A DNA stretch of 8,979 nucleotides. Origin: a virus. Its lineage: Duplodnaviria > Heunggongvirae > Uroviricota > Caudoviricetes. Each line of letters starts with the position of its first letter. Positions within the stretch are counted from its first letter, which is position 1. The notes under the pieces were generated by a model. That model was not told the origin of the DNA, made no database searches, and was given only the letters and a program-made list of their open reading frames with translations. A program made the translations under genes and the position numbers. The DNA lies in IMG/VR virus record IMGVR_UViG_2585427789_000025; one strand, 5' to 3'. Positions 1 to 5,636 of this stretch are shown here, piece by piece.

Positions 1-102
1 GCTAAGCAGGCTGAAAATCTGTCCGCTCTGGAGCAGGATATCACCAATCTGGAAAAAGCAGCGGCATTAAGCATTGCCAGAATGATTACATACCCACGTT
101 AA
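1..102 (+). CDS. C-terminal fragment of a hypothetical prophage protein (5' end outside window)
   Basis: Frame 1 is open from the window edge to TAA at 100-102 (...LEQDITNLEKAAALSIARMITYPR*). The next gene starts 22 nt downstream on the same strand. No function assignable. Confidence 0.4.
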   Translation, partial: AKQAENLSALEQDITNLEKAAALSIARMITYPR

Positions 103-124
103 TGGTTAACCAACGAGGCTAATA

Positions 125-532
125 ATGGAATTTAAAGATTTACCAAAAGAAATCCAGATAATTGCTGCAACGACACTCGGTGATAGTCTGGTGAAAATTG
201 ACCCGGCATACACCAAAAAAGAAACCATCGATAATATGGTTCGTAATGTGCGCAATGCTTTTTCTGGGCTATATGGTTCTGATAATCAAAAGCAGGAAAG
301 CGATGTTAATAAACGGGTAATTTCTGTTTGCGTGAATGGCCATGTTCTTTCATCAATCAAAACAGAAACGGCGACAGTCTTCGATTGCCTTTGCATTGTA
401 CAGAGCCTTGTTGATGCCCTGTTTCGTTCAGTGAATTTAGAAAATGATGCAAATCTGCGAGGGCGCACAATAGCACATCCATATGCACATACTTTAGGCT
501 CTGTGGATATCAAAGATCCCACAAATCTTTAA
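125..532 (+). CDS. Hypothetical protein, 135 aa
   Basis: ATG at 125 with GAGG about 8 nt upstream. The translation has non-repetitive, protein-like composition. No motif recognised. Confidence 0.5.
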   Translation: MEFKDLPKEIQIIAATTLGDSLVKIDPAYTKKETIDNMVRNVRNAFSGLYGSDNQKQESDVNKRVISVCVNGHVLSSIKTETATVFDCLCIVQSLVDALFRSVNLENDANLRGRTIAHPYAHTLGSVDIKDPTNL

Positions 533-743
533 TGAAATAGTTAACGCGAATTGTACTTGCTCTTTCAGTTGCTTTCAGAATACGCGTTGAAACTGCTGGC
601 GGTAATTTGGTATTCCATTTATTAAAATCATGCCCGGAAAAGTACTCTTCGAAAATACTTTTAACTGCAGACTCGCCTATTGAAATGCTGCTTACCATGC
701 GATTTTGATAAAGGCATTTAGCAATAAGAGTTGATTTTAACAT
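510..743 (-). CDS. Hypothetical small protein, 77 aa, convergent with and overlapping the 3' end of the 125-532 gene by 23 bp
   Basis: Minus-strand ATG at 743 is preceded by a consensus AGGAGG Shine-Dalgarno (reverse complement of 749-754, spacing 5 nt). No competing + strand ORF across 533-743. No motif recognised. Confidence 0.55.
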   Translation of the reverse strand: MLKSTLIAKCLYQNRMVSSISIGESAVKSIFEEYFSGHDFNKWNTKLPPAVSTRILKATERASTIRVNYFIKDLWDL

Positions 744-1052
744 TCACCCTCCTGAGGGTTGGTAATTAAGGAGTTCTCCACGGGTGAACATCCGGCACTG
801 ACAGTTTACTGAAAGGATATTTCTCTGAAAAGTCAGAGCATAACGCGAAAGCGCACGGCGAGGTTGCTGGTTCATAGATAGCCTGTCGTTAAATTTTCGT
901 CGACCGTGCGCTTCCGGTTGTGGCACTCCGCGAAATGGCGCGGCGGTAAGTATGGCGGGGTTATTCCTTCCCCGTTGAGGACACCGGGTTGTCAGGTTGA
1001 CCATACGCCTGAGTGACAACTCCGCTACAACAACCCATGTTGATTACCTTTT

Positions 1053-1096
1053 GGCGGGTATTCGTTTTGTTTTTCCCGTGATACCCGCCCCTTTTA
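1053..1096 (+). terminator. Terminator-like hairpin (9-bp stem GGCGGGTAT/ATACCCGCC, 19-nt loop) followed by CCTTTT
   Basis: Stem arms at 1053-1061 and 1081-1089 are perfectly complementary, with T-run 1092-1095 on the + strand. The loop is long for an intrinsic terminator, so a protein-binding palindrome or a leaky tL-type terminator are alternatives. Confidence 0.35.
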
Positions 1097-1100
1097 AAGT

Positions 1101-1254
1101 GAATTTTGTGATGCGGTGAATGCGGCTCAGCGCACGCGGAACAGTTAAAACAAGCGGTCTTTTACTTGCGTAACAGACATCAACTAACAATCCGGCGTTA
1201 ATGGTTTACTGGTTAACGTCACCTGGAGGCACCAGGCGCCGCATCACAAAATTC
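1101..1254. repeat. Perfect 16-bp inverted repeat (GAATTTTGTGATGCGG ... CCGCATCACAAAATTC) enclosing 122 bp, immediately upstream of the operon RBS
   Basis: 1101-1116 is the exact reverse complement of 1239-1254. The interior contains further short stems, such as CGTTAA / TTAACG around 1196-1218. The RBS GAGGA (1261-1265) and ATG 1273 follow directly. Confidence 0.6.
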
Positions 1255-1272
1255 ATTGTTGAGGACGCGATA

Positions 1273-1461
1273 ATGGAAACGTTATTACCAAACGTTAATA
1301 CGTCTGAAGGTTGTTTTGAAATTGGTGTCACTATCAGTAACCCAGTATTTACTGAAGATGCCATTAACAAGAGAAAACAAGAACGGGAGCTATTAAATAA
1401 AATATGCATTGTTTCAATGCTGGCCCGTTTACGCCTGATGCAAAAAGGATGCTGGCAATGA
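1273..1461 (+). CDS. Small hypothetical protein, 62 aa
   Basis: ATG at 1273 with GAGGA at 1261-1265 (spacing 7). The track ORF 1201-1461 is an upstream extension of the same frame with no RBS. The stop overlaps the next start in an ATGA motif (1458-1461). Confidence 0.5.
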   Translation: METLLPNVNTSEGCFEIGVTISNPVFTEDAINKRKQERELLNKICIVSMLARLRLMQKGCWQ

Positions 1462-1741: not shown

Positions 1742-2746
1742 ATGAGTAAAGTCTTTATTTGCGCCGCCATTCCGGACGAACAGGCAATAAAGGAAGAAGG
1801 TGCAGTCGCTGTAGCCACTGCCATTGAAGCCGGCGACGAACGTCGCGCCCGTGCCAAATTTACCTGGCAATTCCTGGAGCAATATCCGGCTGCTCAGGAC
1901 TGCGCTTATAAATTTCTTGTCTGCGAGGATAAACCCGGCATGCCCCGCCCTGCCATCGACTCCTGGGATACCGAATATATGCTGGAAAACCGCTGGGATG
2001 AGGAAGGCGCTTCCTTTGTCCCGGTCGAACCAGAATCCGATCCGATGATCGTCAATTTTGACAAGCTGTCCCTTGAAGTACAGAACGCGGTCCTGGTTAA
2101 GTTCGGTACATGTGAAAACATCACCGTTGATATGGTGATTAGCGCGCAGGAATTGTTGCAGGAAGACATGGCAACATTCGACGGACATATCGTTGAAGCG
2201 TTGATGAAAATGCCAGAAGTTAACGCCATGTATCCGGAGCTTAAGCTGCATGCCATCGGGTGGGTTAAGCATAAATGTATTCCTAGTGCCAAATGGCCCG
2301 AAATTCAGGCAGAGATGCGCATCTGGAAAAAACGTCGCGAAGGTGAACGCAAGGAAACCGGAAAATACACGTCTGTTGTTGATCTCGCCCGCGCCAGAGC
2401 CAATCAACAGTACACTGAAAATTCAACAGGAAAAATCAGCCCGGTCATTGCTGCCATTCATCGCGAATACAAGCAGACATGGAAAACACTGGATGACGAA
2501 CTGGCCTACGCTCTCTGGCCTGGTGATGTGGATGCCGGAAACATTGACGGCAGCATCCATCGCTGGGCAAAAAATGAAGTTATCGACAACGACCGCGAAG
2601 ACTGGAAGCGTATCTCGGCATCGATGCGCAAACAGCCTGATGCCCTTCGCTACGACCGCCAGACTATTTTTGGCCTTGTCCGTGAGCGTCCGATCGACAT
2701 TCACAAAGATCCTGTGGCACTGAACAAATATATTGCGAATACCTGA
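1742..2746 (+). CDS. Hypothetical acidic protein, 334 aa (prophage accessory protein of unknown function)
   Basis: Long ORF with TGAGG about 12 nt upstream of ATG 1742 and a hydrophilic, Asp/Glu-rich translation. The antisense ORFs 1715-2407 and 1906-2292 are shorter and Phe/His/Cys-rich, so judged spurious. No catalytic motif recognised. Confidence 0.7.
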   Translation: MSKVFICAAIPDEQAIKEEGAVAVATAIEAGDERRARAKFTWQFLEQYPAAQDCAYKFLVCEDKPGMPRPAIDSWDTEYMLENRWDEEGASFVPVEPESDPMIVNFDKLSLEVQNAVLVKFGTCENITVDMVISAQELLQEDMATFDGHIVEALMKMPEVNAMYPELKLHAIGWVKHKCIPSAKWPEIQAEMRIWKKRREGERKETGKYTSVVDLARARANQQYTENSTGKISPVIAAIHREYKQTWKTLDDELAYALWPGDVDAGNIDGSIHRWAKNEVIDNDREDWKRISASMRKQPDALRYDRQTIFGLVRERPIDIHKDPVALNKYIANT

Positions 2747-2766
2747 CTACAAAGGGCGTGTTTGAG

Positions 2767-3111
2767 ATGAAGGAAGAGATCTGGGCGCTGTTGATGTTCT
2801 CTCGTCGTCAGTACCAGAAACTGATGCAGTGGAAACGGGTATCTGATATCGCAAAAACTGAATGCGCGGTGGAAGTTGAACCATCTGTAGAGCGTGAGGG
2901 GCCGTTCTATTTCCTCTTCGCCGATAAGGATGGCGAAAAATACGGTCGCGCAAACAAACTTTCTGGTCTGGATAAGGCGCTGGCTGCTGGGGCTACTGAA
3001 ATCACGAAAGAAGAATATTTTGCCCGCAAAAATGGTACATACTCGGGTTTACCGCAAAATGTTGGTGCCTCTGAAGACCGCACAGCCAGAGCCGGTAAAA
3101 GTTACCGCTGA
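2767..3111 (+). CDS. Hypothetical protein, about 114 aa (start at ATG 2767; alternative GTG 2758)
   Basis: Frame 1 ORF begins 21 nt after the stop of the upstream gene, with AAGGG about 10 nt upstream of ATG 2767. Composition is protein-like. Its 3' end overlaps the 5' region of the downstream exonuclease frame. Confidence 0.55.
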
Positions 3112-4207
3112 CGAAGTAAACAAAATTATGCAGGCAGCCAATATCAGCCAGCCTGACGCCGATAAGTTGCTTGCTGCATCACGTGGTGAATTTGTTGAAG
3201 GGATTAGTGACCCGAATGATCCGAAATGGGTTAAGGGGATCCAGACCCGCGATTCTGTGAACCAGAACCAGCATGAATCGGAACGGAACTACCAGAAAGC
3301 GGAACAAAACAGCCCAAATGCGTTACAAAACGAGCCAGAAACGAAACAGCCTGAACCAGTGGTGCAACAGGAAGTGGAAAAAGTCTGCACCGCCTGCGGT
3401 CAGAGCGGTGGTGGCAACTGCCCTGATTGTGGTGCGGTGATGGGCGACGCAACATACCAGGAAACATTCGATGACGAGTATCAGGTTGAAGTTCAGGAAG
3501 ATGATTCGGAGGAAATGGAAGGCGCTGAACATCCACACAAGGAGAATGCTGGCGGCGCTCAGGATCACGCTAGCGATAGTGAAACTGGCGAGACGGCAGA
3601 TCACCCAATTAAGGTGAACGGTCATCACGAAATCACATCCACCAGCAGGACGTGTGACCATCTAATGATCGACCTTGAAACCATGGGAAAAAATCCTGAT
3701 GCCCCGATCATCTCAATAGGTGCAATATTTTTCGATCCGCAAACCGGAGATATGGGACCGGAATTTAGTAAGACTATCGATCTGGAAACTGCTGGCGGAG
3801 TCATTGATCGGGACACCATTAAATGGTGGCTTAAGCAATCACGCGAAGCGCAATCTGCCATTATGACCGATGAAATCCCGTTAGATGATGCACTGTTACA
3901 ATTGCGGGAATTTATCGACGAAAACTCCGGTGAATTTTTTGTTCAGGTCTGGGGAAATGGAGCCAACTTCGACAACACGATTTTGCGCCGTTCATACGAA
4001 CGGCAGGGGATCCCCTGCCCGTGGCGTTACTACAACGATCGCGATGTACGCACAATCGTTGAGCTGGGGAAAGCCATAGACTTCGATGCCAGAACGGCTA
4101 TTCCATTCGAAGGTGAGCGCCATAATGCACTTGATGACGCTCGTTACCAGGCAAAATACGTTTCAGCTATCTGGCAAAAACTGATCCCGAGTCAGGCTGA
4201 TTTTTAA
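3059..4207 (+). CDS. DEDDh-type 3'-5' exonuclease (DnaQ-like fold) with a disordered acidic linker and a CxxC-x7-CxxC zinc-ribbon; start codon uncertain
   Basis: The C-terminal roughly 190 aa carries the three exonuclease motifs in order: MIDLETMG (Exo I, D-x-E), [13 protein letters not shown] (Exo II) and [10 protein letters not shown] (Exo III, H-x4-D). Upstream lie a Q/E/P-rich low-complexity stretch and [16 protein letters not shown]. The track ORF starts at 2894, but its first 55 codons are Arg/Ser/Trp-rich junk lying over the frame-1 gene. No in-frame ATG (3032, 3059, 3128) has a convincing RBS. Confidence 0.7.
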
Positions 4208-5546: not shown

Positions 5547-5636
5547 TGGCGGAGAGAGGGGGATTTGAACCCCCGGTGGAGTTGCCCCCACTCCGGTTTT
5601 CGAGACCGGTCCGTTCAGCCGCTCCGGCATCTCTCC
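5547..5636 (-). tRNA. serU: tRNA-Ser (anticodon CGA), 90 nt with long variable arm
   Basis: Reverse complement of 5547-5636 reads GGAGAGATGCCGGAGCGGCTGAACGGACCGGTCTCGAAAACCGG...GGGGGTTCAAATCCCCCTCTCTCCGCCA. It has an acceptor stem, anticodon loop CTCGAAA (anticodon CGA), a class II variable arm and a 3' CCA. Confidence 0.9.

Follow-up and report, generated by a model that had tools for sequence, protein, structure and literature searches.

The stretch of 8,979 nucleotides (nt) analysed here (IMG/VR virus record IMGVR_UViG_2585427789_000025; this whole stretch is called the window in the following) contains the integrase-proximal arm of an Escherichia coli lambdoid prophage, and within its early-left operon a convergent pair of small genes, encoding 135 amino acids (aa) on the plus strand and 77 aa on the minus strand. 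Both genes are real, and the pair is kept together in prophages of at least 10 enterobacterial genera. We propose, with a probability of about one half, that the 77-aa gene is a moron-type accessory gene which lies antisense inside the early-left operon and is coupled to this operon by convergent transcription. The pair is prophage accessory cargo of an ordinary kind; its unusual feature is the fixed, antisense and overlapping placement directly behind pL. Conservation and co-occurrence of the genes, the position behind pL, the behaviour as a cassette and the deviating base composition are direct observations. The two genes and their junction, with distances in base pairs (bp) where double-stranded, are located as follows:

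125–532, plus strand: 135-aa early-operon gene with ATG start and TAA stop (530–532); matches phrog_1363 end to end (3.7e-47)
510–743, minus strand: 77-aa gene, the cargo of the antisense slot, encoding a basic protein (pI 9.5); ATG at 743–741, TGA stop as complement of 510–512; matches phrog_10348 end to end (2.7e-46)
510–532, both strands: tail-to-tail overlap of 23 bp with the quasi-palindrome TCAAAGAT-N7-ATCTTTAA; both proteins end in IKD...L before the stop
748–753, minus strand: Shine-Dalgarno sequence AGGAGG of the 77-aa gene; spacer GTGA, 4 nt to the ATG

Gene sizes and 3' overlap were recovered exactly as originally predicted, and so was the ribosome-binding site of the minus-strand gene, with its perfect core at 753–748. 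At the junction, the stop codon of the 135-aa gene is the complement of the Ile-Lys codons within the FIKDLW motif of the 77-aa protein. The plus-strand gene has a ribosome-binding site as well (GAGG at 114–117, 7 nt ahead of the ATG). In an E. coli chromosome that is 100% identical across window positions 1–1300 (L001), RefSeq/PGAP annotates both open reading frames (ORFs) as hypothetical proteins (WP_000394517.1 and WP_001735122.1).

The homology check suggested with the original prediction yielded relatives of both proteins in many genera. Full-length homologues of the 77-aa protein, at 53–71% identity and nearly all of exactly 77 aa, are present in Klebsiella/Raoultella, Dickeya, Xenorhabdus, Salmonella, Morganella, Yersinia and Serratia, and the termini are almost invariant (MLKSTLIAKCL... 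and ...FIKDLWDL). A profile search extends the family to 163 cluster representatives, almost all of 74–80 aa, as far as Burkholderia; scans for the genomic context of such distant relatives (Burkholderia, metagenomes) gave no result. The ratio of non-synonymous to synonymous substitution rates (dN/dS) of the family is about 0.15 across genera. Among 5426 complete E. coli genomes, 650 (about 12%, O157:H7 included) carry the gene. An AlphaFold (AF2) model predicts a compact five-helix domain (predicted local distance difference test score, pLDDT, 96.5), and a structure search with this model returned no fold relatives. With a grand average of hydropathy of −0.12 and no transmembrane segment, the protein is predicted to be soluble and helical.

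Sequence searches of Pfam, NCBIfam, PADLOC and PDB returned zero matches for either protein, those of PHROGs led to families of 'unknown function' only, and none of the defence models in PADLOC-DB v2 matched either protein at E<=1. In the literature, no mention was found of these protein accessions or PHROG ids, and the papers on dicBF and paaR2 do not describe these genes. Candidate assignments of the 77-aa protein were rejected: a relation to BssS (PF13991; hhalign probability 0.4%, no Pfam match), a lipoprotein signal in MLKSTLIAKCL (lysine at position −1, a stretch of 10 residues, modelled as a core helix), and a Walker-A reading of ...SGKT... (wrong spacing; E. coli has GRT).

The 135-aa protein is a fusion, of which the C-terminal ~70 residues alone constitute the conserved partner of the 77-aa family. 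Its parts are:

125–298, plus strand: N-terminal module (MEFKDLPKEIQ...GLY), residues 1–55, a helical hairpin common to E. coli prophage proteins with unrelated C-terminal domains
residues 51–61: low-confidence linker in the AF2 model
about 308–508, plus strand: conserved 'M domain', residues ~62–128, homologous to stand-alone proteins of 75–80 aa
509–529 and stop codon, plus strand: tail of 7 codons, read from the antisense strand of the 77-aa gene

The N-terminal module is the sole part in common among E. coli variants of 146, 179, 201, 208 and 212 aa, and phrog_9419, phrog_2151 and phrog_6937 match residues 1–55/66. The M domain aligns with a stand-alone 77-aa Dickeya protein (BLASTP 3e-20) and has 86 relatives in about 12 genera. 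The AF2 model of the whole protein displays two domains (mean pLDDT 71.8), and dN/dS among E. coli alleles of the gene is 0.34. In E. coli, the early-operon gene consists of an M-domain core fused to an extra N-terminal module. In some Citrobacter partners, an N-terminal ClpX-type C4 zinc finger (PF06689, 6e-09) is fused to the M domain (L019/L020 2501–2920; P0259, P0296), which hints at an M-domain protein with ClpX-like recognition, or one that acts as a dimer. The partner was also considered as an N-like antiterminator, but it lacks an arginine-rich motif and the model predicts that it folds into a domain.

Loci of the pair were collected from both sides, via the 77-aa protein (Serratia, Klebsiella/Raoultella, Dickeya, Proteus, Photorhabdus and 80 IMG/VR contigs) and via the partner (Hafnia, Pectobacterium, Citrobacter, Leclercia). 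Both genes are convergent in every locus fetched via either family (L005–L012, L014, L016–L021, L086–L101, L105–L106), and overall in about 97 of ~99 loci; the overlap measures 23 bp in 92 of them, 26 bp in 3 and 51 bp in 2. Such an arrangement is far from what chance would produce. Loci without the partner comprise one case at a contig end and one Psychrosphaera relative, 42% identical. Co-occurrence in other genomes had been put forward as a test of the pair, and the two genes stand together in essentially every locus; a lack of co-occurrence in related elements, named as a refutation, is clearly not what the loci show.

In non-E. coli phages the partner lies on the same strand as a cI-like repressor and after it. 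Operator-length words (at least 17 nt) are common to the cI-cro and cI-partner intergenic regions of these phages and absent upstream of the 77-aa gene, and strong sigma-70 matches are found just upstream of the partner (TTGACG-18-TATATT in L018, TTGACC-18-TATTAT in L008). Hence, the pL operon of Klebsiella, Serratia, Pectobacterium, Citrobacter and related phages opens with the M-domain gene; in E. coli and Proteus, the gene ahead of it is ydfC-like. In one Serratia prophage (L005 5713–6636), a gene of 307 aa without Pfam match is placed between the cI-like repressor and the partner, a position and size which we take to be those of BstA-type abortive-infection genes.

Comparison with other E. 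coli alleles and with the Qin prophage of K-12 shows the antisense gene to be an exchangeable cassette. The boundaries in the window are:

509–742: cassette that varies against the E. coli '201-aa' allele (L002), coinciding with the 77-aa coding sequence (blastn and alignment)
123–756: segment of 634 bp missing from K-12 Qin, comprising both genes and the Shine-Dalgarno sequence (alignment)

The window and L002 are homologous at 1–508 (98.6%) and 743–1496, and not between. In place of the cassette, L002 has a 73-codon extension of the plus-strand gene and an unrelated 63-aa minus-strand gene, again with an overlap of 23 bp; the stretch 743–785, including Shine-Dalgarno sequence and leader, is 100% identical upstream of the 63-aa gene. 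Other small genes take the position of the 77-aa gene in the L002 and L103 alleles; besides the alleles with 135 and 201 aa, a third one in E. coli combines a 208-aa plus-strand gene with a 69-aa minus-strand gene. Alternative antisense cargo hence includes proteins of 63 aa (phrog_2605) and 69 aa (phrog_4274) and a BssS-like protein of 83 aa, the gene of which faces the M-domain gene in one Enterobacterales metagenome contig. That the 77-aa cassette truncated an ancestral 201-aa gene was rejected, since the stand-alone M-domain/77-aa pair is the widespread form. In one metagenomic prophage (L107 2721–3261), a BssS-family gene (PF13991) occupies the antisense slot and is followed in the early-left operon by a 61-aa gene of the CsrA family (PF02599), which would be a phage-borne CsrA homologue.

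In K-12, the counterparts of window positions 1–122 (K-12 locus 1441–1562) and 757–787 (1563–1593) are contiguous. K-12 thus keeps the sequence upstream of the missing minus-strand gene, and the start of its ydfC-dicF 'long untranslated region' is the orphaned leader and promoter region of a lost antisense gene. The stretches compared for this are window 757–1050 and MG1655 1,649,062–1,649,380 (L108 1563–1880); in K-12, an unnoticed minus-strand promoter might still be firing there.

Calling the 77-aa gene moron-like, as the original prediction did, is supported by its base composition, which is unlike the surroundings (guanine-cytosine content 35.5% in 510–743 vs 45.8% in the prophage part and 50.3% in the adjacent intergenic region), by its presence or absence at one position among close relatives including K-12 Qin, by the swapping of cargo, and by an extended −10 promoter motif in relatives (see below). 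It is not supported with regard to a terminator of its own, which was not found.

The 77-aa gene is nearly invariant in E. coli (synonymous divergence, dS, 0.025), whereas the adjacent M domain shows up to 25% protein difference (dS 0.41), indicating that the cassette spread across diverged backgrounds. Identical 77-aa alleles adjoin M domains that are only 75–78% identical, which argues against tight co-variation; since the partner also occurs with other cargo, we lean toward independent cargo. The tail of the plus-strand gene varies with the cargo (IKDPTNL, ...DASLP, ...VPDEQINSDL, ...VFGDQK, each before the stop) and for this reason seems to result from passive read-in, with the reading frame continuing on the antisense strand of the cargo until a stop is reached. 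The 7-codon tail and the 23-bp overlap would accordingly represent a junction inherited as such, the early gene ending wherever the cargo first offers a stop codon.

Passive read-in also speaks for another account, namely that two unrelated small genes are packed tail to tail, with overlap and co-occurrence due to vertical inheritance in one phage lineage and no coupling between them. Mosaic exchange around the junction and the lack of significant RNA structure in leader and overlap agree with this. However, the arrangement persists at 50–70% protein identity across genera despite the high mosaicism of lambdoid phages, and as no terminator separates the genes, firing of both promoters must physically lead to some transcriptional collision or antisense pairing. 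We regard such neutral neighbourhood as rather unlikely.

Regarding expression of the 77-aa gene, the following elements were located upstream of it:

744–797, minus strand: putative 5' leader; a predicted 11-bp stem of GAUGUUCACCC with GGGUGAAUGUU would cover the start codon
803–831, minus strand: weak candidate sigma-70 promoter (TTTTCA at 831–826, 17 nt, TAAACT at 808–803), recognised by eye and below the threshold of the consensus scan

In other genera, an extended −10 element (TGnTAnnnT, typically GGTGGTATCTT) is located ~31 nt upstream of the ATG and is invariant in 14 of 14 distinct non-E. coli leaders, the most diverged included. The promoter search that had been proposed for the minus strand of the window at 744–830 was negative in the consensus scan, and by hand gave the weak candidate at 831–803, which has been conserved in K-12 as well as in every E. 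coli cassette type. The leader has two conserved inverted repeats that covary modestly (88% of cells paired vs 20–51% when slid; 7 double changes) and might act either in RNA or as DNA sites. A structured RNA leader or riboswitch was considered, but fold energies of non-E. coli leaders are no better than those of shuffles, and the repeats may lie upstream of the promoter; the leader fold of the window does not exceed its shuffles either (z −0.86), and no significant RNA structure was found in the overlap. Within about 400 nt downstream of the 77-aa gene, no consistent hairpin with U-run was found in 14 loci; a few loci have their first one near the cI end. Between the two genes there is no terminator, and no space for one.

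Based on this dataset, we picture the pair as a conserved two-gene module in the early-left (pL or dicB-type) operon of Enterobacterales lambdoid prophages, in which the 77-aa gene would be translated from a ribosome-binding site of its own and, in non-E. coli relatives at least, transcribed from an extended −10 promoter that belongs to it. As there is neither intergenic space nor a terminator, each transcript would run antisense into the other gene, and expression of the two should be mutually exclusive. In the lysogen, with pL repressed, the 77-aa gene would be on. When pL or dicBp fires, transcription toward dicF and dicB would cross the 77-aa gene antisense and silence it through head-on transcription and RNA pairing. 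The homology with the K-12 operon implies that early transcription must take this path here to reach dicF and dicB, and expression of dicB, being downstream in the operon, would require read-through over the antisense gene. Promoter activity independent of the operon, expression in the lysogen and antisense interference are thus what we infer; the earlier statement that the 77-aa gene is transcribed against the operon direction holds as a statement on gene orientation. The two proteins would act independently of each other.

Several points weigh against this proposal. The spacing of 4 nt between Shine-Dalgarno sequence and ATG is short. In place of the extended −10 element E. coli has TGGAGAACT, which is not a −10, and the candidate promoter at 803–831 is weak. 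The window allele shows a 29-nt leader deletion between two CACCCGTG direct repeats (junction within 779–786), which removes one arm of a conserved inverted repeat; this deletion type was found in 8 loci, whereas the majority E. coli allele, seen in about 57, retains the 29 nt. Because of the lost −10 element and the deletion, expression of the window copy may be poor. For the 77-aa gene, dN/dS within E. coli is about 0.36, at few sites, and indicates no more than moderate constraint. Near-identical E. coli prophages make up many of the ~99 loci, and the independent evidence comes down to ~20 lineages in 10 or more genera. In Enterobacterales, finally, the 77-aa family was never found without an M-domain gene and the exact 23-bp junction is kept, which would also fit a functional protein pair.

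The deviations at the expression signals raise the question of a decaying remnant: the family would be real, the E. coli copy in the window no longer expressed, and the pair functionally equal to the plus-strand operon alone. Apart from the loss of the extended −10, the leader deletion and the negative consensus scan, frameshifted copies of the 77-aa gene in some E. coli (L087/L088; P0033), deletion of the whole pair in K-12 and a frameshifted exonuclease gene in the same prophage point in this direction. Yet 601 of the 650 carrier genomes have an intact ORF of at least 99% identity, dN/dS is about 0.36 rather than close to 1, the perfect AGGAGG is retained, and the gene is present in the isolated phage Evi and in PPompW prophages. 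Decay therefore appears very unlikely.

The constant company of the M-domain gene may alternatively suggest a cognate antagonistic pair, in which a 77-aa protein made in the lysogen (for exclusion or defence, toxin-like, or modulating the host) harms the prophage's own lytic growth, and the M-domain protein binds and neutralises it upon induction; convergent transcription would add a second layer of shut-off. In addition to near-perfect co-occurrence with a preserved junction, such a pair would be in line with the partner heading the pL operon, as suits the timing of a neutraliser, with the correlated divergence of the two proteins (pairwise among non-E. coli lineages, Pearson 0.66), and with the C-terminal domain of the E. 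coli plus-strand gene, which switches together with the antisense gene (135/77, 201/63 and 208/69 aa). Linkage alone explains the correlation, however, and identical 77-aa alleles coexist with M domains of 75–78% identity. The M domain also faces unrelated cargo (63 aa, BssS-like), so the 77-aa protein is not needed by it, the Psychrosphaera relative does without the partner, and neither protein matches toxin, antitoxin or defence models in Pfam, NCBIfam or PADLOC. On balance, an antagonistic pair seems rather unlikely.

A further possibility, which we consider distinctly unlikely, would be a prophage 'handover' module: a 77-aa effector expressed in lysogeny, with a previously unseen five-helix fold and a role in exclusion, defence or host modulation, turned off upon induction by head-on pL transcription together with an M-domain neutraliser. 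If true, this would be a convergently encoded pair of effector and self-immunity across Enterobacterales, and the 63-aa, 69-aa and BssS-like cassettes would be alternative effectors.

Returning to the proposal of moron-type cargo, the pair may be compared with known systems. Morons of lambdoid phages (a concept of Hendrix and Juhala) are, in the classic cases, mostly co-oriented insertions between late genes. Like these, the 77-aa gene is small, poor in guanine and cytosine, found in some relatives only, at one position, and exchanged as a cassette; the surrounding operon follows a different expression programme, and translation signals and, in relatives, a promoter motif belong to the gene itself. 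Unlike these, it has no detected terminator of its own, lies antisense in the early-left operon, and overlaps the preceding gene. Lambda oop RNA and cII, as well as other convergent cis-antisense pairs, have overlapping 3' ends and mutually antisense RNAs. The window pair resembles them as convergent lambdoid units with overlapping 3' ends, whereas here both partners are conserved protein-coding genes.

Convergent, 3'-overlapping genes are also known from type I toxin-antitoxin loci in Bacillus subtilis prophages, such as txpA/RatA and bsrG/SR4. Location in a prophage and geometry are the same, but the 77-aa protein is a predicted soluble five-helix domain, the opposing gene encodes a conserved protein instead of an antitoxin RNA, and no toxin-antitoxin or defence model was matched. 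Nor does the pair have the form of a type II toxin-antitoxin system, its genes being convergent and without any toxin or antitoxin family in Pfam, NCBIfam or PADLOC. Exclusion and defence genes expressed in lysogeny next to the repressor comprise lambda rexAB, sieB and BstA of BTP1. The 77-aa gene shares with them a position in the immunity/early-left region, and a programme of being on in the lysogen and off or neutralised on induction appears plausible for it; it shows no sequence or fold similarity to them, and it is antisense to pL instead of co-transcribed with cI.

A known counterpart of the operon as a whole is the dicBF operon of K-12 Qin. Its gene order is ydfA-ydfB-ydfC-dicF-dicB-ydfD, with read-through from the DicA-repressed dicBp to dicF and dicB (PMC5069750, PMC10448788). 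The window operon is homologous, with ydfC, a ydfC-dicF leader of about 89% identity, and then dicB and a DUF1482 gene, all on one strand; it differs by the 634 bp of both genes that K-12 lacks, and by a DicF-like element without the K-12 5' seed. The surrounding features are:

1–102, plus strand: 3' end of ydfC, the operon gene before the pair; matches phrog_1744, annotated ydfC in L001, 94% identical to K-12 ydfC
1053–1095 (context 1000–1110), plus strand: DicF-like terminator hairpin (GGCGGGTAT...ATACCCGCC followed by TTTT), the next operon element; hairpin and flanks align with K-12 dicF
1273–1461, plus strand: dicB, downstream operon gene; PF05358 (1e-39), annotated dicB in L001
4469–5494: tyrosine integrase, its end 52 bp from tRNA-Ser(CGA)
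5547–5636, minus strand: tRNA-Ser(CGA)

The dicB-type early-left operon thus runs on the plus strand from the end of ydfC over the 135-aa ORF and a non-coding block of 530 bp with the DicF-like hairpin to dicB, followed by the DUF1482 gene, a split exonuclease gene, a DUF4224 excisionase gene and the tyrosine integrase gene. In L001, the genes upstream are a cI-like repressor, a PaaA2/ParE pair, ydfA, ydfB and ydfC. The Rfam DicF model (RF00039) had no match in the window at E<=1, and the K-12 5' seed UUUCUGGUGACG is absent from the DicF-like element, which may be a divergent or non-functional DicF variant. Upstream of DicF, a long inverted repeat at 849–914 (GCGAAAGCGCACGGCG ... CGACCGTGCGCTTCCGG) is located in the non-coding block, which is ~87–100% identical among alleles; RNase III may recognise this repeat in the operon mRNA. 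A structured RNA in the conserved block 835–1050 was rejected (fold z about −1.3 on both strands). At 1102–1250, covering leader and start of dicB, there is a sub-threshold Rfam match to the Salmonella small RNA candidate STnc100 (29.9 bits vs a gathering threshold of 47, E 0.0017).

The exonuclease gene (Exonuc_VIII and Rv2179c-like 3'-5' exoribonuclease domains, 1742–4207) is divided into three ORFs by frame changes near 2737 and 3077–3090. Its counterpart in L001 is intact (808 aa, 96% DNA identity), and the broken gene is probably a pseudogene or a sequencing error. The prophage is inserted at tRNA-Ser(CGA) (serU), the likely attachment site. Beyond it, on the chromosomal side, mtfA, tRNA-Asn and a yeeJ-like adhesin fragment follow, in what we take to be the serU-mtfA-asnT gene order of K-12. 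The yeeJ-like ORF, with Ig domains, spans 7144–8463 and precedes an ORF at 8542–8979 that reaches the end of the window and, judged by sequence alone, resembles the first ORF of an insertion sequence transposase; the adhesin ORF may therefore be truncated.

The operon in which the pair resides, dicBF, has been studied intensively as a cryptic-prophage locus with control over cell division, metabolism and phage resistance of E. coli. The pair lies in the path of transcription toward both dicF and dicB; in its carriers, ~12% of complete E. coli genomes, it could thus gate the toxic products of these two. The comparison accounts for the beginning of the unexplained 'long untranslated region' of K-12 as the orphaned leader of a deleted antisense gene. 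It also brings out an antisense cargo slot, conserved immediately behind pL in many enterobacterial prophages, and a widespread family of 75–78-aa proteins for which the structure model is confident and without known relatives. Both the cargo slot and the protein family are tractable targets in the search for phage functions expressed in lysogeny, and as such an experimental lead rather than a surprise.

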